Positions 3,447 through 19,134 of a stretch of DNA of 64,000 nucleotides are shown here, one piece after another (positions within the stretch are counted from its first letter, which is position 1; each line of letters opens with the position of its first letter). Both the position numbers and the translations under genes were made by a program. Source of the stretch: Candidatus Freyarchaeum deiterrae. Lineage in GTDB: Archaea > Asgardarchaeota > Jordiarchaeia > Jordiarchaeales > Jordiarchaeaceae. Where the stretch lies: NCBI GenBank assembly GCA_037305845.1, contig CP147778.1:2912001-2976000 (forward strand), given 5' to 3'. A model generated the notes under the pieces. That model searched no databases. It was not told where the DNA came from and worked only from the letters and a program-made list of their open reading frames with translations.

Positions 3447-5018
3447 TTATTCTTCCATTTTTATTCTGAAGTGCTGGTCGTACGCGTTCTTAACTCTGGT
3501 TGCTGTATTTGAGTCGACTGCACCCAGCCTTTCGAGAAGGCTAATCCCCTTTGAGAACTCTTGAGCGATTTCCGGGTTTAGGAGATAATTGAAGTTTCTC
3601 AGGCCAACCTCAAAATTCTTGTTGGCATTACCTCTCTCAATCTCGTTCTGGTAGTCATTCGCTAGTCTACTGATTCCCTTTAGTCTTACTACCTGCCTCC
3701 TATCAGTTATGGTTACAGGAGACACCACTTCATAGGCTCTTCTCTGCCCCCTCCGATACTCTCCCACATAGAAGGGTACGTAAATTAGGAGGGTCTGGTC
3801 GTTTGGTAAGCGTTTCAGAGGGATGGTGAACTCTTCATACTCTATTATTGCTTTATCGGTTTTATCCTTCCAAGACTGGAAAGCATTGACTAACTGTTCT
3901 CTGAGGGCCTTTGCCTCTTCAATGGCGTCCTCGTACTCCTCTATCTCGGAAGCAAGGTTGTCAAGGTTTTCCTCGAGTTCCGACTCAATCTCATCCTGTC
4001 TCTTTTTGTAATCGGATTCGAGTCTCCTCGTCTCCCGATCCTTATCAGAGTAGAACTTGTCCACTTCTCTTTTATGAGATAGGTATTCTCCCTCGAGTTC
4101 TCTGAGGTAATCTCTCAGTTCATCAACAGTGTCCCTAAAATCACTTATCTCATCGAGCATTTCGTATACGTCCTCGGTTTCAACCATTGTCCTAACAGTA
4201 TCCGCATGCTCCGAAATGTCCTTTAATAAATCATAAAGAACACTTCCTGGTCCGGGCATCTTCAGGTCAGGTTTGGATTCCGCAAGATTGGAAGCTAGGC
4301 TTTCTTTCTTCACCTTCTCATCCTGTAATTTCTCCTGTGTTTCTGATTTCAGCTCCTCTTCTTTTTCTTTGTAATCGCTCTTAATGTTTTTGTACTGCTC
4401 AGTAGCGGCCTCGATTCGTGATTCTATGATTTCCAGGGTCGCCTTGTGTTTTTTCTTCTCTCTTTCAATAAGACCATTGGTGGGAAACCATTCAAGATAG
4501 CTTTCATCTAGAAACTCCTTGTCAATCGTGTAGGATGGCTCAATTACTTCAAACTGCTTCACGTTAGTCCACTCTTCAAGCCTGGGCAGGAGATCCTTAA
4601 TCTCCGAAGTGCAATCCTCACCCAGCCACCCCCTCATCTTCACCCCTTTGGGCCTCGACTGGTAACCCGACACCGCCGTTTTTACATAATCTTTGAGCTG
4701 TTCAACAAAGGCGAAAAAGTCCCCCTCATTGAGGTTAAAGGGAATATCAAAATCTAGGATCTGAAGATTAATCTTTGAGGATGAAAAGTCACTCCCATCA
4801 AAAACTAGTGCCTTGCTTTCATCCAGTGGGTGGACCCAGAGGGGGCAGGAAAACTTGGAAACTGAAACCAAGTCATCATCCCTTTTTCTCTCAAGTTCAA
4901 TCAAGAGTAAAGCGATAGCTGTCTCCACACTGTCCAAGTCCTTAGACGCTATCAAACTACCTGAGGGAGGCAGCATAAAGGGAACTGCAAAAATTCTATC
5001 AGACTTCATAGCTCTCAC
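3447..5018 (-). CDS. Coiled-coil protein with globular N- and C-terminal halves
   Basis: About 220 aa of E/K/L-rich heptad sequence between the CPLWVHP and YVPFYVGEY motifs. Confidence 0.8.
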   Translation of the reverse strand: MRAMKSDRIFAVPFMLPPSGSLIASKDLDSVETAIALLLIELERKRDDDLVSVSKFSCPLWVHPLDESKALVFDGSDFSSSKINLQILDFDIPFNLNEGDFFAFVEQLKDYVKTAVSGYQSRPKGVKMRGWLGEDCTSEIKDLLPRLEEWTNVKQFEVIEPSYTIDKEFLDESYLEWFPTNGLIEREKKKHKATLEIIESRIEAATEQYKNIKSDYKEKEEELKSETQEKLQDEKVKKESLASNLAESKPDLKMPGPGSVLYDLLKDISEHADTVRTMVETEDVYEMLDEISDFRDTVDELRDYLRELEGEYLSHKREVDKFYSDKDRETRRLESDYKKRQDEIESELEENLDNLASEIEEYEDAIEEAKALREQLVNAFQSWKDKTDKAIIEYEEFTIPLKRLPNDQTLLIYVPFYVGEYRRGQRRAYEVVSPVTITDRRQVVRLKGISRLANDYQNEIERGNANKNFEVGLRNFNYLLNPEIAQEFSKGISLLERLGAVDSNTATRVKNAYDQHFRIKMEE

Positions 5019-5142
5019 ACTTCAAACTGAATATTAAAGCCATTAATTTAATTACATCCTAGCAAGTCCTAATAATTCTAAACCAACTTAAATCAGTTAT
5101 TCTCGGAGGAGGGGGCCTGACTTCACAGGAAAGGTAAGTTTT

Positions 5143-5424
5143 TCACTGGGAGATTTCCACGGTTTTTACGTTTTCGGTCAAGTCGTGATCTATGATTATT
5201 CTCATTTTTCCTCCGGCTGAGTCGACGCTTGCCTTCTTGCCTATAAACCGGACACGGCAACCATTAACCGTTACTTGGTTCGCTACCTCTTCGGTAATTG
5301 TACGTTCTTCACCTTTACCAGACTCTTCTCCAGATAAAATTATTACCATTAGCCTCCAATTAACGTTTTCTAAGGTTAAATCAACCTTTTGGACACCCTC
5401 ATAAGTCGTCCTCTTCTTAACCAT
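5143..5424 (-). CDS. Small beta-rich hypothetical protein
   Basis: ATG at 5424 preceded by SD taggagatga; the ORF track start at 5493 is probably too long. Confidence 0.65.
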   Translation of the reverse strand: MVKKRTTYEGVQKVDLTLENVNWRLMVIILSGEESGKGEERTITEEVANQVTVNGCRVRFIGKKASVDSAGGKMRIIIDHDLTENVKTVEISQ

Positions 5425-5627
5425 TAAATCATCTCCTACAAATTTACTATACTTTAAAGTAAAAAGTTTTGTGCTTAGTGAAATTAGACCCATACACTGC
5501 CTCTCAAGAAATCTGCATCTATTCTTAAAGAAGCCTTGTTTTAAAGATGCCTAATGGCAAGATTCAATAGGAAGCTTTTCCTTTCTTTATTCTATATGCT
5601 TCTTAATTTTGACGAGAGGTTGTAATC

Positions 5628-7154
5628 TTGATTTTTCTGGAACTTACTGACGAGGCTAAAGTTAACGGTGGTACGCAGAGTGAACCGGGGGTTTCGGGAA
5701 GGACGTTTGGATTCTACGTTGCTGACGCTCACACTCATATCGGAAAAGAAGAAGTCTTAGAGTATGGAAGGAAAGCCTATAGGGAAAACAGTCCGAAACT
5801 TACTCTAGATTTCTATCAGAGGCTCCAGTTTGAGATTATTAACGCTATGAAAATAAATCCCAGCGGATACTGTTTTGTCCCAGCGAAACCTTTTACCAAG
5901 CCTCCAACTTTACAAGGCATGCTTTCCGAGGGCACACCCGATGCTCGAAGTATAGGCTGGACTGTTGACCAGTTCGTAGCCTTCCCCTTCAACGAAACCA
6001 CCGCCTATAAAACCAGCCCAAGCTTCCAGATACCAAACGACAGGGTTCTGAGCCGGGCAACAGTTCTCCCCTATTCCCTGAGAATGTTCGGCTTCGTAAG
6101 AGTTGACCCTCACGATGGAGATAAAGCTGTTCAGGAATTAATACGGTGCAGTCGCCAGAGAGCGAGAGGATTAAAGCTTCACCCCATTTCGCAAAAGTTC
6201 CTAAGCGAGATGCATTCCGAAAATGTGAAGAAAGTCGTGGCCACAGCAGCCAGACTCGGTTTGCCAGTCCTCTTCGACTGCAGATACCAGAGCACAGCCG
6301 AGGATATATACCGACTGACACAAGAAGTTAGAGACGAAATAGGAAGCAGCGACTTCGCCATAATAATAGGGCACTCGGGAATGGAGTACACGAAAGACGA
6401 ACTCTACGAATTCTTCAAAGACCCTAACGTCTACGCTGAAACCTCCGGAGTCAGAGGTTACGATGTTCCCCTCTTCTTCAAGAAGATGAAAAGCCATGTT
6501 CCCAACTGGTCAAGCAAGATCGTATTCGGAACAGACTACAATTACTTCAGCCTCCCCCAAGCCACAGACTTCCTCACCTACCTCTTCACAAAGGAGTTCC
6601 GCGACCAAACAGGAGGCACCCCCGAGGACATACAGCACATTCTTGCAGGAAACCTTCTATCAATAATTAAACCATTCATAATGTCACCAATCGAAGGAGG
6701 GAAAACTCCGAAAGACGGGAAACTTTACCGAGTAGGCTACGAACACGCAGATGCGTTCCTCAAAAACTTGTCACAGAGAATATCCTCCCTAATTGGGGGA
6801 AAAAAGCTAACCTACGTTACTTACGATGTCTTACTCTCCTCCGACTTCGGGATGGACTCCGAAAGCTTCCTCATAAACCTGTCCCGCGAGAAGGTCACAG
6901 CATCACAGGTCAATGAAGTCATAGTGGTTGCCAAGAGGAGGGATGAAGCAGGAGAGTGTCTGAATGTCTGCAATGTTACTGGGAAATTACTCCAAGTAGA
7001 GGAAGACTACAAGGAAGGGGGGACGCCGCAGAAAACAATACTCAACAATAAACTCTACACAAAGCTAATACACGAAATCGTCTTAAGCGCAAACCAAGAG
7101 AAAATCAAGACCAGAGAAGAAGCCGAAAAACTTCCAAAAATCCTAATCCTCTAA
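5628..7154 (+). CDS. Amidohydrolase family (TIM-barrel, amidohydro_2-like) protein with C-terminal extension
   Basis: DAHTH, GLKLHP, IIIGHSG and VFGTDY metal-binding motifs. Confidence 0.85.
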   Translation: MIFLELTDEAKVNGGTQSEPGVSGRTFGFYVADAHTHIGKEEVLEYGRKAYRENSPKLTLDFYQRLQFEIINAMKINPSGYCFVPAKPFTKPPTLQGMLSEGTPDARSIGWTVDQFVAFPFNETTAYKTSPSFQIPNDRVLSRATVLPYSLRMFGFVRVDPHDGDKAVQELIRCSRQRARGLKLHPISQKFLSEMHSENVKKVVATAARLGLPVLFDCRYQSTAEDIYRLTQEVRDEIGSSDFAIIIGHSGMEYTKDELYEFFKDPNVYAETSGVRGYDVPLFFKKMKSHVPNWSSKIVFGTDYNYFSLPQATDFLTYLFTKEFRDQTGGTPEDIQHILAGNLLSIIKPFIMSPIEGGKTPKDGKLYRVGYEHADAFLKNLSQRISSLIGGKKLTYVTYDVLLSSDFGMDSESFLINLSREKVTASQVNEVIVVAKRRDEAGECLNVCNVTGKLLQVEEDYKEGGTPQKTILNNKLYTKLIHEIVLSANQEKIKTREEAEKLPKILIL

Positions 7155-7262
7155 CATTCAAAACATTGGTAAAAGTTCCAAGACCTTATTGAAATTTTAA
7201 TAATTGCTGGGATTGGAAATAAAAAAGAGAAAAGAATGTTTTGTTTGTATTTTTACCATAGA

Positions 7263-7979
7263 TTACATGTTTCTGGATGAGTAGAAAACTACAGCCCAGA
7301 GAATGAAAGATATGAATATCAGTCCAAAGCCAACAATCAGTAGTACGTACCAAACACCGCCTAAAATGAAAAACATCGCACCTATGATGCTTAGAATCCC
7401 CGCAGCTGATGAAGCCCCTGGACTATCGGTCATATCACGCACCGAATAACTCGCCGAACCAACTAAGATGAAGGCAACACCCAGTATAAAGAATCCTATC
7501 CAGATAAGGGGAAAATTCGGCGTAGGCACAGGTAAAAAGGGAACCGCTTGCATTTCTACCATTAAATTTGCGTACATATACCCAGTTGTTAGGTTTCCCA
7601 TAATGATAAGCAAAGCTCCCCCTGCGATTACTATAATGCTGAAGATGAGACCCACTACACTCATCGCCCCTCCACCACTCTTGTGTATGCCGTAGAAGCC
7701 AATACCGATGAGAACACCGGTCACAATAAGGAGTATAGCCAATATAAAAGATGATACACTGAACGAAAACCAAGAAGGAGAATAAAGTGGGGGAGATGTG
7801 GGTTGTAATCCACCATATCCCGGTTCAAAGATAGGAATGAGGTAACTACTCCATTGCCCTAAGTAATTGTTCATGTCGGTTAGAAACGAGTAAGTTATAA
7901 AAACCCATATTATCCCAAAAGCTGCGGTTACTGTCCCTACTATTCCACCAACTGCACCAGATAGTAACGTTTTAGACAT
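7263..7979 (-). CDS. Multi-pass membrane protein
   Basis: About six hydrophobic segments; SD ggaggt. Confidence 0.8.
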   Translation of the reverse strand: MSKTLLSGAVGGIVGTVTAAFGIIWVFITYSFLTDMNNYLGQWSSYLIPIFEPGYGGLQPTSPPLYSPSWFSFSVSSFILAILLIVTGVLIGIGFYGIHKSGGGAMSVVGLIFSIIVIAGGALLIIMGNLTTGYMYANLMVEMQAVPFLPVPTPNFPLIWIGFFILGVAFILVGSASYSVRDMTDSPGASSAAGILSIIGAMFFILGGVWYVLLIVGFGLIFISFILWAVVFYSSRNM

Positions 7980-8246
7980 TCTCCAACCTCCTTAATTATA
8001 GCATGGAATTTTATTCTTACTTATTAGAAATCTTTAACATATTAACCTTGATGTCGAGGCAATTATCTAGATCAGTTTTTCATTTCGTAGGCGTCTGCAA
8101 ACAGTTCGTAGAAGGTATATAAAAAATCGTATAAAATTGCAAAAATCTTTTACCTAGAGTCGAACAAATCTCCATAACCTAAGGCTCTCTTAGGGTAAAG
8201 TTAATATGTCTCACTTTTGAAAGATTAAGTGAAAGGTGAATTTAAA

Positions 8247-9620
8247 ATGTCAATGATAAAGGTAGAAGTTATAAACGCTGGATCTGCTGAAGGAAGAGCT
8301 TTCATGAACAAGAATGACATGCAGAACATTGGCGCTGACGACTTCGACGTTATAGTTTTTATCAACCAGTACGAGGATTGGGGAGCGGCTCAGGTTATCG
8401 CGAGCAACGACTGCGCCGCCGGATACATAATGGTTGATGGATCGGTTCTCAACTCGGCAAACGTTTCAGAAGGAGACGCTGTCACCGTAAAGCGGAAAGA
8501 AGCGGTCGGTGGAGTTACTAACGTTCAAATCGGTGTGGAGCCGATGGCGGGTCAACCTACTGAGGAAGTTGTAGTTTGGGTTGCCGACCATGCTGACGAC
8601 CTTGCCCGTCTTTTGATGAAGAGGCCAATATACAGAAATCTTTCGATAGACTGGAGGGATGCAGAGATCGACCACATCAAGCTCAAAGTGCAGAAGACTA
8701 CTCCAGAACTCTACACGGAGGACGTAGCCATTATCGATCCTACTGGTAGAGAAGTAACTTTCGAGATTGTTCCCGCTGTAGACATGACGTTTAATGCCGT
8801 TCTTATGATTGATGTGTCTGGTAGTATGCAAAAGCAGGATATGAGAGTTATAAACGCTGATGGTGCGGTGGAGGGACTCAGAAGAGGGCTTAAGGAAACC
8901 CCTCAACTGAAGGACTTCATAGTTTCCATGGAAGAAGGAGCCATGGTGAGCAGAATAAAGAGTTCAGCACTGGCAACGCTCCTCTACCTCTCACTCAAAA
9001 TAGGTAGAGGATGGGGCGAAAACGTTCAGGTCATAACCTTCGCAGACGGGGCTGAGCCTCTAAGAGTAACGGACGCGGATGGAAACGTAAGCACAGTGAT
9101 AAAATGTACCGGTGAGAGCAAGGACATCGGACTTGAAACCATAGCAAACTATATCATAGAAAAGTGCAAAGAAGGAAGCGGACTAACATACATGAGCGGA
9201 GCAATAAAATTAGCCTCGGAAATCGCACCAGGGTTCCCATCAAACCCGAAAACCGGTCAACCATCCCCTATAATGTTCGTACTACTCACCGACGGAATGC
9301 CCAACAAGGGAGACTCAGGACAAGGGATAACCGTAAACCCCATACCCGCAATAAAGAAGTTCATGTCTGGGCAGACCGGCTGGGTGCTCTACTGCGTAGG
9401 AATAGGCGAAGCAGACGCTCAACTTTTACAAAAAATGGCGGAGCTTGGTAGAGGCGAGTTCCTCAAAGCAAGCGACTTCGGTCAGCTTTGGAAATGGTAC
9501 GACACTCTGGCTCAAAGGTTCGCCATCGCTGTTAAAACCACTCCCTCAACTTTCGTAGCCGAAGAAGAAGAAGTAAGAGAAATAAGAGAAGTAAGAGACG
9601 AAGGAGAGGATGCTGCTTAA
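8247..9620 (+). CDS. CDC48/VAT N-domain-like region fused to a vWA domain (no AAA ATPase)
   Basis: N-terminal pattern GYIMVDGSVLNSANVSEGDAVTV...LMKRPI...KVQKTTP resembles the CDC48 N subdomains; intact MIDAS (DVSGS, GLTYM, LTDGMPN); acidic C-terminal tail. Confidence 0.8.
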   Translation: MSMIKVEVINAGSAEGRAFMNKNDMQNIGADDFDVIVFINQYEDWGAAQVIASNDCAAGYIMVDGSVLNSANVSEGDAVTVKRKEAVGGVTNVQIGVEPMAGQPTEEVVVWVADHADDLARLLMKRPIYRNLSIDWRDAEIDHIKLKVQKTTPELYTEDVAIIDPTGREVTFEIVPAVDMTFNAVLMIDVSGSMQKQDMRVINADGAVEGLRRGLKETPQLKDFIVSMEEGAMVSRIKSSALATLLYLSLKIGRGWGENVQVITFADGAEPLRVTDADGNVSTVIKCTGESKDIGLETIANYIIEKCKEGSGLTYMSGAIKLASEIAPGFPSNPKTGQPSPIMFVLLTDGMPNKGDSGQGITVNPIPAIKKFMSGQTGWVLYCVGIGEADAQLLQKMAELGRGEFLKASDFGQLWKWYDTLAQRFAIAVKTTPSTFVAEEEEVREIREVRDEGEDAA

Positions 9621-12600
9621 GGCGCAGCTATTATTTCCCCTTTCTCTTTTTTTATTAATCGGTCAGAAACAGGCTGGCCATCTTCAGTCATTCTAAAGTC
9701 GAGAAGATATCTGGTACGGTATGGAATCTCTGGAATTTTCCAAGAGTAGGTACCGTAAATTTCTGTTTCTCTTTTCTGCTTAATGTTAAAGCCCGCAATT
9801 TTCATTTCTTCCCCTTGACTCGTGGCGTAAACATTGAGCTTGAGATCCTCACTATTATAGTTTTGTTTTACTACCACGTCGAAGTAAACTTTATCACCGC
9901 TATTCACCATATTGGGAATGCTCGGTGAACCCCTAATTTTAACTTCCAATGGTGCAACCTGTGGTTGAATAATTTGAAACCTGGTGGAAGATATCCACTC
10001 CTCCGCCTTACCCTTTTCCGCGTTATAGGAAAGCCTTGCAATGATGAAGCACTCTTTACCAAGGGTGTAAAGAGGTGGAGTGAAGACTTCATCTATTTGT
10101 CCCTGCTCCCCGGGCGTTAGCTTTAAACGATTACTTCTAAAGGTAGTCTTTTTCGAATTTAGGGGCAAGAGAGTGAAATCAACATCCACCTGGAGACTCT
10201 TCTCCGAGTTATTTCTAACTCTGAGTACATGCTTACCAGCCTCCCCCGCTTTCACGGCCCCCTGCAAGAGGGGAGGAGTAACATCAATAAGAGACTTTTG
10301 TTGCAATACATCAAAAGAGGTTTCCCTCGAGCCTATTCTTACATCTCCCACACTCAGACTAACTTCCAGCGAAGCCTTTTTCACTTCTGAGGGAATATCC
10401 CTGATTCTCATTGGTAGCGGTAGTAGATAGGTTCCATCCTCTCCTATAGTAAAGGAGTAAATCTCCTTCTGAATATCTACCTTTTCAGAAGAAATCTCTA
10501 GGTTAATGAAAAGATTCACTGGATCAAGCACATAGTTAACTTCAACCTCGATTAAAGGAACAATCCTAACTCCAGACATTATACCTTGCGGAGCATTAAC
10601 AAATCCATGAAGCCTCAATATTTTATTTACGTTGGGCGACTTTACAAGAATCTCTTCCGAGTCAAGCTTCTCTATAGCTGTTCCCTGGTAGAGAACCTCT
10701 GCTCTAAGCTTAAATCTTCTAGACTTGGGGAGATCTTTCATCTTGAATCTGTAACTTACTTTCTTTTTGTCTGATATGTTAAACAAGCTGTGGTCTACGA
10801 GAACTTCCTCCCCATTCACAGGGCAGTAATAAATATTCAACCCGTAAACCCCCGCCAAATCCGGATTAAGATTCCTGACCTCAATATCAAAATCGCAGTC
10901 CGAATCCAGAACCAATTCTTTCTCCTTAGAATGAACGTAGAGAGAAACCTTCGGCGGCTCAACAATCGAAGCCTCCACAGCCTTAGACTCCCTTACCCTC
11001 TTCGCAGTCACAGGCCTACTAACCACTGGCATACGAGCAGCACTAGTAGCTTCAGATGCTTCAGCAGTCCTTGGTAAACGCTGAACAGGCGGCTCCCGCC
11101 GTTCGGGAATCCTGGGCTCGGGTTTCGCAATTCGTTCCGTAAATGTTTTCCTCTCAGAGAATGTCTCCTCTCTACTGGGTATCCTTCTTGAAGCTTCAAC
11201 TGGAACTCTGGGCTCGGGTTTCGCAATTCGTTCTGCGGTCGGTTCTCTCGTAGTAAGTGCCCTCGCCTTCGTAGGAGTCTTCCTCGAAACTCCCGAGGAA
11301 ACCGCTGACTTAACGCCCCTCTTCTCAGCTTTCCCCATCCTTGAAGATGTAGACTTGGACTTCACTGTTGGCGTGACTGTTTTCAACTTCAGGGTGGATT
11401 TGGGATTTGCTTTGACACCCTGCTTAACTTTTTGAGACTGGGCTCGCATCTGTGTTTGAGTATATGCTTTGGGTTGAGCACGCTGAGGAATTTTTTGAGG
11501 TGGAGTTCTGATACTCGGCTGTGGTCTTCCCCTCTGGGTTACTTGCAGAGATTTGGTTTCAGTGGGCAATTTCGCCGTTACTTGAATTTCTGGTTTCATC
11601 GGTTCCGGTTCCGGTTCCTCTTTCGGGATGATTGATATGTTCGGGGTTCCATGCTCACCTACTACCCGCGACTTATAGAGAACCTGGGCTCTTATTTTCA
11701 GATACGCTTCCTTGGCGATTTCACTTGTTATTTTTAGCTTGTAGGGTATGTTTACTGTCGTGAGGCTGGTTAGATTCTTTTCTAGCTCAAGTTTGGAAGC
11801 TCCACTCGGAAGCCTTCGGTAAACGCGCAGCTGGTACCTTCCAGCGAACTGAGGAGTGTTGTTTGTCACTTGAATGTTTATATCGTAACTTCCGTCCTCA
11901 TCGACCTTTTTGGGAACGGGAGAAGTCTTAACCACGATGTTTGGTGTGGCAATTACCTTGAAGACATTGGTCTTTATTTCTGCTAACTCGTTTTTATTCT
12001 TGTCACGCACAGTAAACTGGAGAAAGCAGCTCTTGGTCTTGGAGAAGGCTCCAAAGGGCACTACAAGCGGGATAGCAGTCCCTCCAAATGTCGTCTCTCT
12101 ACCCGGCTTGAGTAAAACATCCTTTACCGCCGTGCTAACAACAGACTCCTCCCCGCCCACCCTAGATAAAACCTTTCCAAGAACTGTGACCCGTGTTTCA
12201 GAGTTGCTATTTGAAGTGAGACTCAGCTTGAAGGGAATCCGCTCCTGAGCAACAATCAGATTAGACTCCACCGAGCCGGAACCATTCACGGAGAGAGTAG
12301 GAGCAGCAGCAGCAACAGCAACAGTAGTAGGCGCAACGGCGTGCGCACGCTTAGCAGCAGCGGCAGGTGCAGCTGTGGGTACTCGCTCAGCAACAGCCGC
12401 CTTGGCAGTCTCTTCAGGGATTCCGAAGAGCTTGGTTATCGGGTCTTCTGTAAGGTTTGTGCAAAAATCCTCTGTTATCTTAATAAGGTTTGAAGTAACA
12501 CGAGCGAAGTCACCGCCTGAAGACTGGTAGAGGTAGAGAAGATAGTCCGCTGGGGAGCAGGGGGGCTCAAGTTGGCGGGTTCCCATTACAGATGTTAAAA

Positions 12601-13816
12601 CGGGGTTAAGGTACTCTTGGAACCCTAGTTCCTCAATTTCGTTTTGAATAAATCTCAGCATGCTTTGAACAGCTTCAAAAAGCTTCGTGTTCGGCTTACC
12701 AGAGTCGGGATTAGAATTATAGTACTTGGCGAACGACTTATCAGAACCGCTAAGATTCTCGTCCGGTAAGAATTTACCGAAGAGCCCAAACTCAACAGCC
12801 TTTTCCCGGTTGTCAACCAGAACCTCGGATTTCACAGCTGGCAACTTCTGACCAGATTTAACAAGCTTTGTAGCCTTGTATGCGAGGGTTTGAATAATTG
12901 CAATGAGAGCGAGTCTGCGTGCAACACTAAACTGGGTGTCAAAAACTCTCATCTCGATTGTTCCATAGTCGGTAAACGGCCACATATCAACAAACTTATC
13001 GTCGGGGGCCTCCCTGTTTACAACCTTATCAAAAATCCTCCTGTCAAATCTCTCAAGATAGGGGATGTAGTGATCCTTGTCTACAGGTCCCATCTGACCC
13101 TTGTTAAAACTCAGCCTCAGGCTTCTCACACTGTTCTGACTCAGAATGAAAACCTTAGGAGCTTTCTTTACTTTTACATTTCCTGTGGGTGCCTCATTTA
13201 TAAATGGTGAGTCTACAGCGAGCGCAATGAGGTGAGGTATAAAACATCGCAGCAGATTATATGCAGCTAGTCTATCCCTAGTGTCAGATATACCGATGTG
13301 GTAGTGGTCGCCGAAGGTAACTCCACTGCGGTACTCGGCTTCCCTTGGGTTAAAGCCAATTGATATAATTCCATACCCACTTGGCAAGGAATTCAGAGCA
13401 ACTCGGTAAAGAGACCTTATCCACCATCCCAGCTCTTCCATAGTCTCACACGGTGGGGTTACTAGTTCAAGAATCCAGGTGACTTGACTTATGTTCGGGT
13501 CCGGGCCGAAAGACATGATCTCAATGTTCTTACTGCCGTGCATCCTGTAGCTTACAGCAATGTAGGGCAGCCTTCTCCCCTGGCGTTCCTTCTCCACCCG
13601 CCACACACGAACAAGTTTCTCCCTCACGATGCTGGGGGCACCTTCGAGAACAGTTTTCTCCAGAATCGCTCCTGCACGTTTAAACAGGTTATCCCAAATC
13701 TTTATGAGGCGCTGACCCTGAAGAAGGGCACCACTCTGGTCTACTATCTGAAGCTCCATCTCAACACCCTGAGTAAAAGGAAGTCGTTTGCCACTACTAC
13801 TACTCAATTTAATCAC
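9617..13816 (-). CDS. GCS2/YbdK-family carboxylate-amine ligase fused to Ig-like beta-sandwich repeats and a basic disordered region (1399 aa)
   Basis: GVEMELQIVD, LELVTPP, FGDHYHIG, DSPF and GTIEMRVFD motifs in aa 1-465, followed by an Ala-rich linker, beta-rich ~110-aa units and a K/R/P/S/T-rich region. Confidence 0.85.
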   Translation of the reverse strand: MIKLSSSSGKRLPFTQGVEMELQIVDQSGALLQGQRLIKIWDNLFKRAGAILEKTVLEGAPSIVREKLVRVWRVEKERQGRRLPYIAVSYRMHGSKNIEIMSFGPDPNISQVTWILELVTPPCETMEELGWWIRSLYRVALNSLPSGYGIISIGFNPREAEYRSGVTFGDHYHIGISDTRDRLAAYNLLRCFIPHLIALAVDSPFINEAPTGNVKVKKAPKVFILSQNSVRSLRLSFNKGQMGPVDKDHYIPYLERFDRRIFDKVVNREAPDDKFVDMWPFTDYGTIEMRVFDTQFSVARRLALIAIIQTLAYKATKLVKSGQKLPAVKSEVLVDNREKAVEFGLFGKFLPDENLSGSDKSFAKYYNSNPDSGKPNTKLFEAVQSMLRFIQNEIEELGFQEYLNPVLTSVMGTRQLEPPCSPADYLLYLYQSSGGDFARVTSNLIKITEDFCTNLTEDPITKLFGIPEETAKAAVAERVPTAAPAAAAKRAHAVAPTTVAVAAAAPTLSVNGSGSVESNLIVAQERIPFKLSLTSNSNSETRVTVLGKVLSRVGGEESVVSTAVKDVLLKPGRETTFGGTAIPLVVPFGAFSKTKSCFLQFTVRDKNKNELAEIKTNVFKVIATPNIVVKTSPVPKKVDEDGSYDINIQVTNNTPQFAGRYQLRVYRRLPSGASKLELEKNLTSLTTVNIPYKLKITSEIAKEAYLKIRAQVLYKSRVVGEHGTPNISIIPKEEPEPEPMKPEIQVTAKLPTETKSLQVTQRGRPQPSIRTPPQKIPQRAQPKAYTQTQMRAQSQKVKQGVKANPKSTLKLKTVTPTVKSKSTSSRMGKAEKRGVKSAVSSGVSRKTPTKARALTTREPTAERIAKPEPRVPVEASRRIPSREETFSERKTFTERIAKPEPRIPERREPPVQRLPRTAEASEATSAARMPVVSRPVTAKRVRESKAVEASIVEPPKVSLYVHSKEKELVLDSDCDFDIEVRNLNPDLAGVYGLNIYYCPVNGEEVLVDHSLFNISDKKKVSYRFKMKDLPKSRRFKLRAEVLYQGTAIEKLDSEEILVKSPNVNKILRLHGFVNAPQGIMSGVRIVPLIEVEVNYVLDPVNLFINLEISSEKVDIQKEIYSFTIGEDGTYLLPLPMRIRDIPSEVKKASLEVSLSVGDVRIGSRETSFDVLQQKSLIDVTPPLLQGAVKAGEAGKHVLRVRNNSEKSLQVDVDFTLLPLNSKKTTFRSNRLKLTPGEQGQIDEVFTPPLYTLGKECFIIARLSYNAEKGKAEEWISSTRFQIIQPQVAPLEVKIRGSPSIPNMVNSGDKVYFDVVVKQNYNSEDLKLNVYATSQGEEMKIAGFNIKQKRETEIYGTYSWKIPEIPYRTRYLLDFRMTEDGQPVSDRLIKKEKGEIIAAP
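11112..11233 (-). repeat. 26-bp exact direct repeat encoding ERIAKPEPR twice
   Basis: ctgggctcgggtttcgcaattcgttc at 11112-11137 and 11208-11233. Confidence 0.9.
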
Positions 13817-14078: not shown

Positions 14079-15101
14079 CTAATCCTTTTTTTCCTTTGCT
14101 TTTCTTTTTTTAGTTCCTCCTTCTTCTTCTCCTTTGTCTTTGGTTCCGTCGATTGTGGAGAGGGTTTCGATTCTTTTGGCTACTTTCTGTACAAGTGATT
14201 CCAAGCTGCTTATCAGTTCCTCATCTTTAGGAAGCTCATCCCATTTCTTGGAGACAACCTCTCTTCTTTCTCTTAGAATCGTGAGGGGCTTCTGGAGAGG
14301 AAGCAGAGCACTGGCCTCAGTGATTGCTTTAGTTGGGCCTTTCTTTTTCAGCGTATCCACCAAACCGAGCACGATTCGATCAATTAGAATCTCGAAAAGG
14401 GCTCTTGAGCCCTCATTCATGATTGCTCTAATAAAGAGGAAGAACTCACTGTCTCCAATTTTTCTGAAACGCCATTCTTCGGATCCCGCTTCATGGCTGC
14501 TGGAAAACTCCAGTTTTAAATTCGATTTATTGGGCACGCTTTTGAGCATGTTTAAACAAGCGTAACGGATGCTGAGGTCTGGTTTGGCTTCCTTTTCCCA
14601 GCTGGCGGATATGCCTCCCTCTAGAGAAATCAGATAGACATTCTGTAGAATTATGTTTATCATTCGTCCCTCGGAAAGCCAGCCAATCTCTTTATCTATG
14701 TAGGATTGAAGCCTTTGGGGCACAACTTTTGCTTTAATAATATCCTCTATGCTTTTCCTTGTTTCATCGTCCAGCTCAATGGTTGCCTTCAATTCTTTTT
14801 CTAAATCTACATTTTTCTCGAGTAAACTAACTAATTCATCCAATTTAGAGTACATGATTTCCATATTGTCAGACACGTCAAAGATGCAGACCCAGAGACC
14901 CTTACCGGTCTCTTTAAGCAGAAGTGTGTATAATCCAAGCTGAATTTCTCGATAAAGGTGTTCTTTACTAAAAATCTGGGTAAGAAACTTGTTTAAAGCA
15001 CTCAACATACCCGAAAATAGGGTAAAATTGATGCCCAAACCATCATCATGTACCACGTGTCCTATTCCGTCCTGGGTAATGACAAGTAAGGCGTGTATCA
15101 A
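14079..15101 (-). CDS. Longin/roadblock-like domain protein
   Basis: N-terminal IHALLVITQDG...LFSGMLSALNKF pattern typical of Asgard longin-fold proteins; second NVYLISLEGG module; divergent from the GTPase. Confidence 0.65.
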   Translation of the reverse strand: MIHALLVITQDGIGHVVHDDGLGINFTLFSGMLSALNKFLTQIFSKEHLYREIQLGLYTLLLKETGKGLWVCIFDVSDNMEIMYSKLDELVSLLEKNVDLEKELKATIELDDETRKSIEDIIKAKVVPQRLQSYIDKEIGWLSEGRMINIILQNVYLISLEGGISASWEKEAKPDLSIRYACLNMLKSVPNKSNLKLEFSSSHEAGSEEWRFRKIGDSEFFLFIRAIMNEGSRALFEILIDRIVLGLVDTLKKKGPTKAITEASALLPLQKPLTILRERREVVSKKWDELPKDEELISSLESLVQKVAKRIETLSTIDGTKDKGEEEGGTKKRKAKEKKD

Positions 15102-15218
15102 ATATTATAACCCCATCATTATGAATGTTTGATAAAAACTCTTAAGGTACAAAAGCTATTTATTCTTAGCGGAACAAAAAATCTATGACCAAGAACCCTG
15201 TAAGTGAGGTAAAACTGC

Positions 15219-15767
15219 ATGCCAGACAAATACATATTCAAAGTACTATTACTCGGTGAAGGAGGCGTCGGCAAAACCACTCTAAAACAAAGGTACACAG
15301 AAGGGCTTGTTGACCCCATATACAAAACCACAATAGGTGTGGATTTTGGACAAATAGACACAAAACTCGCCGAGCAGGAAATATCTCTGCATTTTTGGGA
15401 CATTGGGGGTCAAATCCAGTTTCGCGATATTTCTGGCGCCTTCTATAAGGGTGCTAAGGCGGCTATTCTGATGTTTGATGTCACCCAGCCTACTACCTTT
15501 GATGGTCTCAGCGAATGGCTTAAATTGATGCAGGAGGAAAATGTTTACAATATTCCCAAGATAATAGTAGGAAATAAAATAGACATCAGAAAATCTGATA
15601 AAGGACATCATGTCACCTCCGAGAAGGCAAAGAAATTCTGTAATAACCTGAAAATGGAATACTTTGAAACCTCAGCTCTTTTCGGCGAGGGCACGGAGGA
15701 ACTATTAAAGAATCTGGTAAACATCATCGCAACGACCTACCTCAGTATAAGTAAAAAAGCGGTGTAA
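15219..15767 (+). CDS. Rab-like small GTPase (Ras superfamily)
   Basis: G1 GEGGVGKT, G2 TIGVDF, G3 WDIGGQ, G4 NKID, G5 ETSA; no C-terminal Cys. Confidence 0.95.
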   Translation: MPDKYIFKVLLLGEGGVGKTTLKQRYTEGLVDPIYKTTIGVDFGQIDTKLAEQEISLHFWDIGGQIQFRDISGAFYKGAKAAILMFDVTQPTTFDGLSEWLKLMQEENVYNIPKIIVGNKIDIRKSDKGHHVTSEKAKKFCNNLKMEYFETSALFGEGTEELLKNLVNIIATTYLSISKKAV

Positions 15768-15838
15768 AAAGAACTCTTGAAAGATAATTTTCATACTACA
15801 AATAGTTTAGAATATACTACGGACATCTGGCGGTTCCT

Positions 15839-16471
15839 ATGGAGATAAACTCTAAACTGGCTTTCCAAAATGTTTATACACAGTGTGGCTCTGGAAGACC
15901 GATTGGCGGAGCAGTGGTCACCACCTCTGGGAAAATCCTATACCAAGAAAACTTTAATGACGACGAAATATTAAGAGAACTCATTCCCCTTCTCCCCCAA
16001 TTAAGGGTAGGCGATTTTCTCTCAACCAGAAACTACCTAGTTCTACGAGCATCAACTGGCATATCCATAATTTTAAAATTTATCAATGAGCAAAAAGTTG
16101 CCTTAGCCCATCTCTCCCTAATTGGAAGATTCGCAGCCTTCGCAGGCTGGTTCGACTTTCTGGACGCTAAAGATTACAACATCAACCTACTGAAATTAAA
16201 CTACCCGGAGGGACGCAAAATCTATGACCTCCTGAGATGTGACTCCACAACTGCGACAGGGAAAATTCTGGAATTTATAGTTGAAAAAGGCGAGGTAACC
16301 AAGGATGATTTAATCCAAGAGCTGGGAATAGACGAACACACCGCAGAGAAAGCTTTAGACAAACTGGTAAAAACTGAAATATTGGAAGAAAATGATGGAA
16401 AATACATGATACACACCCGACTAATCACCATCAAACTATTACACCAGTCCAACCCTCTTCCAACCACATAA
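15839..16471 (+). CDS. Profilin/roadblock-like N domain plus C-terminal winged helix-turn-helix
   Basis: KILEFIVEKGEVTKDDLIQELGIDEHTAEKALDKLVKTEILEE wHTH pattern; N-terminal GAVVTTSGKILY. Confidence 0.65.
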   Translation: MEINSKLAFQNVYTQCGSGRPIGGAVVTTSGKILYQENFNDDEILRELIPLLPQLRVGDFLSTRNYLVLRASTGISIILKFINEQKVALAHLSLIGRFAAFAGWFDFLDAKDYNINLLKLNYPEGRKIYDLLRCDSTTATGKILEFIVEKGEVTKDDLIQELGIDEHTAEKALDKLVKTEILEENDGKYMIHTRLITIKLLHQSNPLPTT

Positions 16472-16702: not shown

Positions 16703-17848
16703 ATGAATTTTGAGCTAACCGAAGAGCAGGAACTAATTCGAAGTACGGTAAGAGAATTCGCTGAAACTGTACTAGCTCCTCGAGCCCGTGAGATGGATGA
16801 AAAGGCCGAGTTTCCTTGGAATGAAACAAAGAAGATGGCGGAACAGGGCTACTTGGGTGCCCAGATCCCCAAAGAATACGGTGGCTCAGAACTGGACAGT
16901 GTCAGCTACGCGATACTGATAGAAGAAATATCTCGTGTGGTCTGCGGAATCGGTTTAACCCTGCAGATTCACAACTCTGCCTGCGCTCAACCAATTGCAC
17001 AGTTCGGCAACGAAAAGCAGAAGAAACGATTCCTTCCCCGATTAGCTAAGGGTGAAATTATAGGAGCCTTCGCTCTAACAGAACCCGGAGCCGGAAGCGA
17101 CGCTCAATCTCTAAGAACTAACGCCACTCCTAGTGGAAACGAATACGTGTTGAATGGTAGCAAAATATTCATCACTAGTGGACCGGTAGCGGGAGTGGCT
17201 CTTGTCTTCGCAGTGACACCATCAGCCGAGGAGGGCAAAAGAAAGCCCATGAGTGCGTTCTTAGTTGAGAAGGGAACCCCCGGATTCAGCGCTGGTGCGG
17301 ATGAGGACAAGATGGGCATGCGTGCCGCGATCAACTCGGAACTAATGTTTGACGAATGCAAAATACCTAAGGAGAACCTTTTGGGAAAAGAAGGGGATGG
17401 ATTCAAAATAGCAATGACCATACTAGACTCTGCGAGAATAGGAGCCTCAGCCCAAGCCGTGGGGCTTTCACAGGCAGCCCTTGAAGAATCACTCAAATAC
17501 TCCCAGGAGAGGCAGCAGTTCAACAGACCCATCGCACAGTTCCAGGCAATCCAATTCATGATAGCTGAGATGGCGACCCAAATAGAAGCCGCCCGTCTCC
17601 TGACATATCAAGCAGCATTTCTAAAGGATAAGGGAGCCCGGTTCACCAAGGAAGTAGCTATGGCAAAGCTCTACTCTTCAAAAATCTGCACTCAAGTCGT
17701 ATCAAACGCCGTCCAGATACACGGCGGCTACGGCTACATGAAAGACTACCCGGTCGAGAGATACTACAGAGACGCTAAGGTACTCGAAATATACGAAGGA
17801 ACCAGCGAAGTTCAGAGAATGGTAATAGCGGGACAACTAATAAAATGA
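16703..17848 (+). CDS. Acyl-CoA dehydrogenase (short-chain/butyryl-CoA type)
   Basis: FALTEPGAGSD, NGSKIFIT, QIHGGYGY and IYEGTSEVQ motifs. Confidence 0.95.
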   Translation: MNFELTEEQELIRSTVREFAETVLAPRAREMDEKAEFPWNETKKMAEQGYLGAQIPKEYGGSELDSVSYAILIEEISRVVCGIGLTLQIHNSACAQPIAQFGNEKQKKRFLPRLAKGEIIGAFALTEPGAGSDAQSLRTNATPSGNEYVLNGSKIFITSGPVAGVALVFAVTPSAEEGKRKPMSAFLVEKGTPGFSAGADEDKMGMRAAINSELMFDECKIPKENLLGKEGDGFKIAMTILDSARIGASAQAVGLSQAALEESLKYSQERQQFNRPIAQFQAIQFMIAEMATQIEAARLLTYQAAFLKDKGARFTKEVAMAKLYSSKICTQVVSNAVQIHGGYGYMKDYPVERYYRDAKVLEIYEGTSEVQRMVIAGQLIK

Positions 17849-18072
17849 GGCTCTAAACTAATTACTCACTGAAAGCATGGAAAGAGGAATCAATAAAGAT
17901 AGAAAAATAAAAAGACGGGCATAAATTCAACCTTCCGCTTACTCAACTTATTTTTCATTCATTTTTAATTATTCACAAAGATTGCTCACCTTTTTTTTAA
18001 GAAATATAAAAAAAATATATTAACAAGTAGATATAAGTATAATATAACGATATTATAAGAGTTGAGAAAGCG

Positions 18073-19134
18073 ATGGTGTTGCTCAACACAAATTTGGAAT
18101 TAGCGGACTTTATGCCAAAATATTTAGATCAGGCACAACGATACAACAACTGGTATTTCACAGTAAGCTTTTCGCATAAGAAAAAAGAGTACATGGCGAG
18201 ATTCTCCATCACCGAAGGCACTCTTATGGGACAAAAAGACTTTTTAAATCTTTCAATGACTCCACTAAGGCTTAAGCAAGAAAAGGATGTGCAGGTATTA
18301 AAAGAGCCAACTAACGACATAGCTATAATTAACACGGTGGAACAGAAAGATTTCCAGCACCGCGAGGAGAAGGATAAAGTCATAATAGAAACGCCGAATC
18401 TTACTGCCATATGCAAGGTTGACGAACGCAAATTAATTTCGAAAAATGAAAACCTCGGATGTGAATTAACCTTTAAATCTCGCGGTCCGCCGACCTTTTG
18501 GGGTGAAGAAAAGTACAAGAAGTGTGAAATAACTGAGGGAACCGGTGTTTCTGGGATTGAGGCGCTGTGCAATGTTCAAGGAAGCATAAATGTCGAGGGA
18601 GAGCCTATCGAAGTCAACGGCATGGGTCTGTCTGAACGCACGTGGATTGATTCACTAAACTTCTTGGCAATAAGGATGGTGGACTGGATTTATGCGAATT
18701 TTGATCAGGCGTATATGTTCCTCTGCCATGTGGAATCGAATAAAAGTGATGGGTGCCTTTTCCATTTTGAGACTGGAACGGTTTACATGATGCAGAAGAA
18801 TGAGTACTTACCAATCAGAAAACTCGAAGTTACGCCCGAAAAATGGGCGTATCAAAAGTCAGCCTACCGATTCATACCACTGCAACAAAAGGTTAAAGTG
18901 AAAACCGATAAGGGAGACTTGGAGATGGACGTAGCCCTAAATATGTATCCACAAACGATCGAAGACGCTAGGCGAATCGAAAACCTAACCCTTAATAACA
19001 TAACCGGTTGGAATGCGATGTTTTATGACTCGCCAGTCGCAATCAAAGGGAAATTCACCTACAAAAATGGAAAAACTGTGGAACTGGACAATGGACGAGG
19101 AATGAACGAGACTCTGAGAATAGTTCCGTTATAA
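18073..19134 (+). CDS. Hypothetical beta-rich protein, possibly AttH/CrtC/tocopherol-cyclase-like fold
   Basis: NWYF...GMGLSERTW...VDWIY spacing recalls double beta-barrel lipid-binding families. Confidence 0.5.
   Translation: MVLLNTNLELADFMPKYLDQAQRYNNWYFTVSFSHKKKEYMARFSITEGTLMGQKDFLNLSMTPLRLKQEKDVQVLKEPTNDIAIINTVEQKDFQHREEKDKVIIETPNLTAICKVDERKLISKNENLGCELTFKSRGPPTFWGEEKYKKCEITEGTGVSGIEALCNVQGSINVEGEPIEVNGMGLSERTWIDSLNFLAIRMVDWIYANFDQAYMFLCHVESNKSDGCLFHFETGTVYMMQKNEYLPIRKLEVTPEKWAYQKSAYRFIPLQQKVKVKTDKGDLEMDVALNMYPQTIEDARRIENLTLNNITGWNAMFYDSPVAIKGKFTYKNGKTVELDNGRGMNETLRIVPL

Follow-up and report, generated by a model that had tools for sequence, protein, structure and literature searches.

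The locus and its genes

We analyzed a 64,000-nucleotide (nt) window of the chromosome of Candidatus Freyarchaeum deiterrae (contig CP147778.1; G000:C1:2912001-2976000 in our numbering), a closed 3.58-Mb genome. The closest database relatives of the window proteins carry Jordarchaeia or Freyarchaeota (Asgard archaea) labels. Three genes are considered here, encoding a carboxylate-amine ligase, a protein combining a Cdc48-type N domain with a von Willebrand factor A (vWA) domain, and an amidohydrolase-superfamily enzyme. A first-pass annotation of this DNA had read them, together with a coiled-coil protein gene, as a possible reversible system for tagging proteins and extracting the tagged products. 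The gene positions and domains that it gave, and the TTAA shared by two stop codons, were all confirmed by open reading frame (ORF) calls, Pfam searches and direct reading of the sequence. The features of the locus are listed below (lengths in amino acids, aa):

9617..13816, (-) strand: ligase, 1399 aa (ORF call, Pfam GCS2, NCBIfam YbdK models)
8229..9620, (+) strand: Cdc48N-vWA docking protein, 463 aa, without an ATPase domain (ORF call, Pfam, AlphaFold model)
5628..7154, (+) strand: Amidohydro_2 triose-phosphate isomerase (TIM)-barrel metal enzyme, 508 aa (ORF call, Pfam, structure model)
5143..5493, (-) strand: small protein, 116 aa as called and about 93 aa in its orthologues (tblastn and ORF maps of loci L021, L022, L025 and L027)
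3447..5018, (-) strand: 523-aa protein with a central coiled-coil-like region (ORF call)
7263..7979, (-) strand: 238-aa multi-pass membrane protein, between the amidohydrolase and vWA genes
9561..9607, (+) strand: 9-nt (18-nt) tandem repeat encoding the E-V-R/E-I-R segment in the vWA protein's acidic tail (repeat search, Tandem Repeats Finder)
9617..9620, both strands: TTAA common to both convergent stop codons (sequence read)

The ligase and vWA genes converge, and the forward strand reads GCTGCTTAAGG at positions 9612-9622; the stop codon of the vWA gene is the TAA at 9618-9620 and that of the ligase gene is the reverse complement of 9617-9619. This overlap is incidental, as it is not conserved in paralogous or orthologous loci: the gap between the two convergent genes is 74 bp in the paralogous pair and about 10 bp in the closest orthologues. 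Of 17 terminator-like sites, against an expectation of 10.7 +/- 3.5, one is a hairpin at the shared stop (9612-9628), to which we attach no weight; the scan for sigma-70 promoters and terminators, uninformative for an archaeon, gave nothing above shuffled sequences. The true start of the vWA gene is likely to be the ATG at 8247, a few codons downstream of the called start, and the 523-aa gene is also likely to start a few codons downstream of its call.

Evidence for a three-gene module

The genome contains exactly two genes of the GCS2 family, to which the ligase belongs, and both lie in copies of the same gene set. The second, type B copy (L003:3818-11017) consists of genes for a 177-aa coiled coil, an amidohydrolase, a vWA protein and a convergent ligase. 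Within the larger type B region (L003:3818-13097; G000:C1:2375817-2385096), a B425-B263-ligase operon converges on the coiled coil(177 aa)-amidohydrolase-vWA genes. The type B ligase has 1191 aa and is 40% identical to that of the window in the ligase domain. It is convergent to a Cdc48N-vWA paralogue (31% identical), which bears an acidic N-terminal extension in place of the acidic tail. An Amidohydro_2 paralogue (37% identical) is encoded ahead of this vWA gene, on the same strand as it.

Gene fusions also join these families. An 893-aa protein of the same genome (L017:9543-12224; G000:C1:2361542-2364223) has an amidohydrolase in its front part (E 2e-17) and a Cdc48N-vWA protein in its back part (E 2e-9), and an 876-aa counterpart is found in locus L060, next to a Thor-type ligase arrangement. 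Both fusions have lost five putative metal or catalytic residues of the hydrolase (H35, H185, D217, H249 and D303; that of L060 also H37), together with the residues of the metal-ion-dependent adhesion site (MIDAS) of the vWA domain. From their residues, they are predicted to be catalytically dead proteins kept in two distant lineages. In P0132 (962 aa), the vWA domain of this family (E 8e-20) is joined to a ligase domain instead; a metagenome scan with P0132 alone returned no loci, and an alignment-based rescan did not recover its contig.

Synteny was examined in 80 ligase-anchored loci from species-representative genomes (tblastn and ORF clustering) and 80 metagenome loci. At least six orders of the three genes recur in these 160 loci, some of them compact operons on a single strand:

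Jord type A: ligase, then vWA (convergent), amidohydrolase, small protein and 523-aa protein; the gene for the last of these is instead found immediately upstream of the ligase gene in a second genus
Jord type B: B425-B263-ligase, converging with vWA-amidohydrolase-coiled coil
Heimdall type: amidohydrolase-ligase; the vWA gene is located about 6 kb upstream
Hod/Hermod type: GTPase-c24-amidohydrolase-ligase-vWA, all on the same strand; the stop of the amidohydrolase gene lies within 5 nt of the ligase start
Sigyn: vWA-ligase
Loki: c33-ligase (about 570 aa)-amidohydrolase; a Cdc48N-insert-vWA protein of 720 aa is encoded 5-23 kb off
Thor: c3-ligase, with an adjacent vWA-amidohydrolase pair about 10 kb on

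In the metagenome loci, short-ligase forms also occur with the vWA gene directly convergent to them, as do loci in which a same-strand vWA gene lies just upstream of the ligase gene.

Phyletic profiles were compared over the same 301 Asgard genomes, a sample in which genomes are partly incomplete and related genomes are not independent. The ligase domain was found in 170 of them and the vWA protein and the amidohydrolase in 171 each. The same 10 families were positive for all three genes (f1 5/5, f2 5/5, f6 1/1, f7 63-65/76, f9 61-62/68, f21 15-16/21, f23 4/7, f26 1/1, f27 11/11 and f28 1/1), and the same 20 families scored zero for all three, among them f5 (0/29), f12 (0/19) and f14 (0/11). 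Each gene was then typed according to which copy it is closer to, that of the window (A) or its paralogue (B). All loci in which the three genes could be scored were either AAA (22) or BBB (12), and the only mixed calls involved two vWA fragments cut by a locus edge. This pattern reflects more than species phylogeny, because one genome holds both types; the three genes were duplicated together and have since evolved as one unit.

The simplest alternative is that unrelated genes happen to lie together in this genome. The window genes are not co-oriented, as the first-pass annotation had itself cautioned, and a membrane protein gene separates two of them. The paralogous locus, the fusions, the synteny in at least six arrangements and the identical family-level phyletic profiles already refute this possibility. 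The three genes are linked in every positive lineage and co-oriented in the Hod/Hermod-type operons; the unlinked orthologues and discordant profiles that would have spoken for coincidence were not found across the Asgard genomes. A functional link among the three proteins, as first suggested from the proximity of their genes, is thus supported.

The ligase

The N-terminal ~470 aa of the ligase (12400-13816) form a YbdK/GCS2-type carboxylate-amine ligase domain. The match to GCS2 (PF04107) reached 34.2 bits (cut-off 21), with 33.4 bits for the paralogue, and a profile search of the PDB retrieved YbdK (1r8g, E 1.1e-14), the only solved relatives being 1r8g and 1tt4. YbdK-type NCBIfam models also matched (E down to 2e-19). 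However, their scores of 35-69 bits are far below the equivalog and subfamily cut-offs of these models (176-437 bits), so the protein is not an orthologue of any named YbdK/GCS2 member. Pup_ligase (PF03136) did not match the window ligase, for which GCS2 and a weak ASH match were the only Pfam results at E up to 0.01. In our alignment (A1), six residues do not vary (E117, H173, E288, R290, D293 and Q295), and conservation is at least 90% for E21 and H171. GCS2-type ligases use ATP to activate a carboxylate as an acyl-phosphate, which is then joined to an amine to give an amide. Since the window ligase keeps the E, H and R motifs and its family match is above cut-off, it is predicted, and expected, to form amides with ATP.

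The remainder of the protein (9617-12399) is made up of an Ala/Pro linker, repeats resembling beta-sandwiches and a basic stretch predicted to be disordered (aa ~760-880), for which the charge profile gives a net charge of about +25. This arm found no match in the PDB sequence search and only the weak ASH match in Pfam. The basic stretch, present in the window ligase, is strong in Heimdall and Hod ligases and absent from those of Jord type B, Thor and Sigyn. It contains a 32-nt direct repeat (11106-11137 and 11202-11233, 94% identical, 96 nt apart) encoding a repeated ...ERIAKPEPR... segment, which looks like a recent internal duplication.

The ligase domain also occurs near the C-terminus of coiled-coil proteins of 2200-3800 aa (P0110, P0114, P0126 and P0127), one of which is labelled SbcCD-like by its source and one of which carries a helix-hairpin-helix domain. 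These giant proteins derive from soda-lake and other metagenomes.

The amidohydrolase

The hydrolase matched Amidohydro_2 (PF04909) with 48 bits against a cut-off of 26.4. Its model (predicted local distance difference test, pLDDT, 84; predicted template modelling score, pTM, 0.87) consists of a TIM barrel (aa ~28-350) and a C-terminal alpha/beta domain (aa ~366-508). The barrel aligned with PF04909-type structures (4dlf, 2dvt, 4l6d and 2hbv) over about 250 residues, with Z scores of 20-22.5 and a root-mean-square deviation (rmsd) of about 3. The putative metal and catalytic residues D33, H35, H37, K183, H185, D217, H249 and D303 are invariant in 33 sequences. The structural neighbours included a COG3618 amidohydrolase, the resorcylate, carboxyvanillate, ACMSD and IDCase decarboxylases, pyrone-dicarboxylate lactonases and LigY; their scores were tied, and no amidase was present among the named enzymes. 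The role of amide-cleaving eraser initially assigned to this protein is consequently not borne out by its closest solved relatives, which are decarboxylases, lactonases and a C-C hydrolase rather than amidases.

The Cdc48N-vWA docking protein

The 463-aa protein gave a CDC48_N match of 33.3 bits, just below the cut-off of 35.1, and a VWA match of 24.6 bits (cut-off 23.8). CDC48_N matches were obtained for 46 of the 49 family members, with a best E value of 9.1e-11. The AlphaFold model (pLDDT 85, pTM 0.82) shows a two-lobed N domain (aa ~8-180) made of a double-psi barrel and a beta-clam, a vWA domain (residues 183-432) and a disordered tail, which is acidic at aa 445-463. No AAA ATPase domain was matched by Pfam in this protein, in which the vWA domain follows the N domain instead. 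The modelled N domain superposed on isolated p97 N domains with TMt 0.64-0.78 and rmsd 3.7-4.2, and the vWA domain was closest to TFIIH p44, ITIH1, Rpn10 and the archaeal ArnB (Z 19-22). The MIDAS is complete (D195, S197, S199, T320 and D355) and invariant in 49 sequences. Such a site binds a carboxylate ligand.

The acidic tail had been proposed to act as a Glu donor or acceptor, or to pair with the basic region of the ligase. Even orthologues from the same genus do not share this tail and end in ...AEEPS or ...AEEEEF; Sigyn and Hod forms have no tail, and Heimdall forms have long D/E tails often ending in Y. In the window, part of it is the product of the 9-nt tandem repeat. A pairing of acidic tail and basic arm holds in Heimdall-type loci, where both are strong, but fails in Hod-type loci, where the ligases are basic and the vWA protein lacks the tail, and in Jord type B and Sigyn. 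Neither proposal is supported.

A third intact Cdc48N-vWA paralogue in the genome (L018:8215-9516; G000:C1:2444214-2445515; 35% identical) has neither a ligase nor an amidohydrolase gene nearby and is surrounded by unrelated metabolic genes. In another homologue, P0054 (584 aa), a long linker of acidic composition is followed by a ubiquitin-like domain at the C-terminus, ending in ...STAG.

The fold of this protein raises the possibility that it is the archaeal counterpart or forerunner of the NTD-SABA half of DEPDC5/Iml1 (NTD, N-terminal domain). The module would then be a signalling scaffold reporting nutrient status, that is, an amino acid or gamma-glutamyl compounds, to small GTPases, and a pre-eukaryotic root of GATOR1-type signalling. 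In Foldseek, the top whole-chain matches were indeed DEPDC5/Iml1 chains (9o5a_B, 9v0j_C, 9o5e_H, 9xzy and 8ae6_W), with TMq 0.36-0.37 and an rmsd of about 10 over some 440 columns, compared with TMq of about 0.30 and rmsd above 20 for p97 N-D1. The DEPDC5 NTD has been described as NSF-N-like and its SABA domain as Sec23-like (PMC8534245), and Thor and Loki are reported to contain NPRL2-like longin proteins (bioRxiv 10.1101/2020.10.19.343400). In four arrangements, one of them the GTPase-c24-amidohydrolase-ligase-vWA operon, the module has small GTPase genes nearby. However, the Foldseek E values were tied with those of p97 and NSF, no IML1 Pfam match was obtained at E up to 1 in 49 members, and no DEPDC5 chain appeared in the PDB profile search at E up to 10. 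Taken as a single domain, the vWA part is a canonical MIDAS vWA, closest to TFIIH p44, ITIH, Rpn10 and ArnB, and the protein ends about 30 aa after it, with the SHEN, DEP and C-terminal domain (CTD) parts absent. The adjacency of GTPase genes was noticed post hoc in genomes rich in GTPases, and with 28 Ras-type matches in the 3.58 Mb of this one it could be due to chance. We therefore regard the signalling interpretation as very improbable.

Accessory and neighboring genes

The 523-aa protein has no Pfam match and a central E/K-rich helical stretch. Its orthologues are found at the module only in Jordarchaeia loci, in two different positions: adjoining the small protein gene in this genus, and directly upstream of the ligase gene on the same strand in L025, L026 and L027. 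No paralogue of it was found in the genome, and it belongs to a much wider archaeal family, extending beyond the module. The coiled-coil protein had been counted among the parts of the system; the linkage holds within Jordarchaeia but not beyond, and the protein is no more than a satellite of the type A module in that lineage. The 116-aa protein always adjoins the amidohydrolase in Jordarchaeia type A loci; it has no Pfam match and its C-terminus is not conserved. These two proteins are Jordarchaeia-only accessories. The 238-aa membrane protein gene occupies its position only in the same-genus loci L020 and L021 and is absent there in L025 and L027, so it is probably an interloper. The longin-like, GTPase and roadblock genes upstream of the ligase (14079-16471) are not kept beside it even within the genus.

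No linked AAA ATPase or proteasome genes were found among the Pfam-scanned neighbors in the 80 genome loci, many neighbor clusters being unscanned and the metagenome loci having been checked for module genes only. With none of the gene orders found linking the module to an AAA ATPase, the idea that it extracts tagged proteins is left without support.

B263, encoded directly upstream of the type B ligases, shows homology with the Thor c3 family (hhalign 97.7%, E 1.7e-12) and, weakly, with the C-terminus of the Loki c33 family. A family with a D-x4-GGG-x3-Y motif lies directly upstream of the type B, Thor and Loki ligase genes, often overlapping the ligase start. Its members are at the following positions:

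L003:11028-11819
L084:9322-9990
L090:7769-9697

The Atlas structural neighbors of B263 were peptidase-C15, FGase and PAC2-like alpha/beta folds, which we take only as a lead.

The small GTPase genes mentioned above lie within a few kb of the module (15219-15767 in the window; L003:17144-18307; L035:3603-4727; L054:6958-7551), and the Hod-type same-strand operon is headed by a GTPase gene and the gene for the 300-aa protein c24. In the Lokiarchaeial locus L099, the module region encodes an MIT-domain protein, a Roadblock/LC7 protein and an actin homologue (6204-7232, 13030-13422 and 17349-18551), the Roadblock/LC7 gene being directly upstream of a 721-aa Cdc48N-vWA gene. The L017 fusion gene is divergent from an SPFH/Band-7 gene (L017:8350-9354), and an SPFH-NfeD pair is located between the ligase and vWA genes in Thor loci (L084:16889-18568).

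Proposed function

We consider it reasonably probable that the window holds the type A copy of an Asgard three-gene module whose products make and process an amide linkage on a docked substrate, likely as one complex. The three products most likely work together in this way; both the formation of a complex and the direction of the hydrolase step are inferred. The YbdK/GCS2-type ligase would activate a carboxylate with ATP as an acyl-phosphate and join an amine to it, yielding an amide. The Amidohydro_2 enzyme, whose residues are intact, would either remove the linkage made by the ligase or prepare the substrate. The Cdc48N-vWA protein would act as a non-catalytic docking subunit, its MIDAS holding a carboxylate, either that of a C-terminus or that of an Asp or Glu side chain, while the N domain grips a partner; it may present the carboxylate-bearing substrate, or clamp one of the two enzymes. 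The beta-sandwich and basic arm of the ligase would serve as an accessory binding part, short-form relatives having no arm. The invariance of the catalytic and MIDAS residues in the ligase, vWA and hydrolase alignments is consistent with this proposal.

As the substrate, a macromolecule is slightly favored over a metabolite, in view of the arm of the ligase, the docking protein and the fusions, both dead and giant; a protein target is possible. Several observations weigh against the proposal. The named structural neighbors of the hydrolase all act on small molecules, as do, to our knowledge, all characterized GCS2 ligases. The Ig-like arm and basic region are missing from Loki and soda-lake ligases, and so cannot be essential to the chemistry, and the Loki vWA gene lies 5-23 kb from the ligase-amidohydrolase pair. 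Furthermore, no tag protein was recognized: the C-termini of the 116-aa, 523-aa, 177-aa coiled-coil, B425, B263, c33 and c24 families showed no conserved motif. The parts list drawn up for protein tagging thus lacks a tag-like small protein with a conserved C-terminus among the recurrent neighbors. Of the reversible tag-and-extract system first envisaged, the linkage of the genes and the fit of the ligase family to amide formation stand, and the tag, the extraction step and the role of the tail are unsupported.

Some of these observations speak for a small-molecule pathway, in which the ligase gamma-glutamylates or amidates a metabolite (an amine, as in Puu/FluG-type pathways, or cysteine, leading to a low-molecular-weight thiol), the Amidohydro_2 enzyme performs a neighboring metabolic step and the vWA protein does no more than assemble or regulate them. 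YbdK proteins are the nearest solved relatives of the ligase, and small acids are the substrates of the hydrolase neighbors (decarboxylases, lactonases and a C-C hydrolase). The genome has no GCS2 genes besides the two of the module, and the recurrent neighbors include no tag protein. Pairs of a FluG/NodGS-type amidohydrolase and a gamma-glutamyl ligase are a known theme (PMC6478659), and GshA-type InterPro matches in Asgard are listed in a review on thiols (PMC7278568). However, a beta-sandwich and disordered arm of 500-900 aa on the ligase would be unusual for a plain metabolic pair, as would a dedicated MIDAS/Cdc48N docking protein fused to either enzyme, a dead hydrolase-vWA fusion retained in two distant lineages and giant coiled-coil proteins bearing the ligase domain. 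We therefore judge a purely metabolic role to be rather unlikely, and retain the processing of an amide linkage on a docked substrate as our interpretation.

Comparison with known systems

In the Asgard literature searched, we found no paper describing a ligase-hydrolase-vWA module; the thiol review (PMC7278568) merely lists GshA-type Asgard matches. The module is real, undescribed and conserved. It constitutes a core, vertically kept set in about one third of the sampled families of Asgard archaea, the closest archaeal relatives of eukaryotes, the genomes bearing it being labelled Jord-, Sigyn-, Heimdall-, Hod-, Hermod-, Thor- and Loki-. As its three proteins are soluble, have intact active sites and are also carried by Lokiarchaeia, its function is open to direct in vitro work.

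The module ligase resembles the YbdK/GCS2 proteins (YbdK of Escherichia coli, 1r8g; the Salmonella protein, 1tt4; haloarchaeal GshA) in its family profile and E, H and R motifs. However, its ligase domain is about 100 aa longer and is followed by a non-catalytic arm of 500-900 aa, and the protein comes with two partners, a vWA protein and an Amidohydro_2 enzyme. The docking protein shares both N-domain subdomains, within its first ~180 aa, with Cdc48/p97/VAT and NSF, but has a MIDAS vWA domain instead of AAA ATPase domains. The vWA protein ArnB of Sulfolobus (ArnA-ArnB; 8s05, 5a8j) is likewise an archaeal cytosolic vWA protein (Z 20.1, 22% identity, profile E ~7e-5), but it pairs with an FHA/zinc-ribbon protein and kinases, and has neither a Cdc48N domain nor ligase or hydrolase partners.

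FluG provides a precedent for an amidohydrolase paired with a carboxylate-amine ligase (PMC6478659). In FluG/NodGS, as in the module, a TIM-barrel enzyme of the amidohydrolase superfamily is genetically coupled, by adjacency or fusion, to such a ligase; in the module, the amidohydrolase stop and ligase start are within 5 nt in Hod-type loci and the genes are adjacent in Heimdall and Loki loci. However, the FluG/NodGS ligase is of the glutamine-synthetase-I type (PMC6478659), whereas that of the module is of the GCS2 type, and FluG/NodGS have no vWA/Cdc48N partner. Moreover, the two module enzymes are not fused to each other, each being fused to the vWA protein in some lineages.

The Pup system (PafA, the deamidase/depupylase Dop, the Mpa/ARC ATPase and the proteasome) follows the logic of the first-pass annotation, combining a ligase with an enzyme that prepares or removes the linkage, and the PafA ligase belongs to the same broad carboxylate-amine ligase superfamily. 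The likeness is one of analogy only: the module ligase has no Pup_ligase match, no Pup-like tag gene or linked AAA or proteasome genes were found, and the second enzyme has a different fold. If the module does modify proteins, it would represent a ubiquitin-independent, Pup-like but independently built tagging system in the lineage leading to eukaryotes.

Among the proteins compared here, only DEPDC5/Iml1 (Sea1) of GATOR1/SEACIT appears to share the order of an NSF/Cdc48-N-like and a Sec23-trunk/vWA-like domain, as NTD and SABA, with Foldseek E values tied with those of p97/NSF. The archaeal protein differs in keeping the full MIDAS vWA, in lacking SHEN, DEP and CTD, and in having no sequence-level similarity to it. 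In a survey that searched Asgard archaea for components of GATOR1, longin proteins of the NPRL2-like kind were reported but a homologue of DEPDC5 was not (bioRxiv 10.1101/2020.10.19.343400). Should the resemblance nevertheless reflect common descent, it would bear on the origin of Rag/TOR nutrient signalling.

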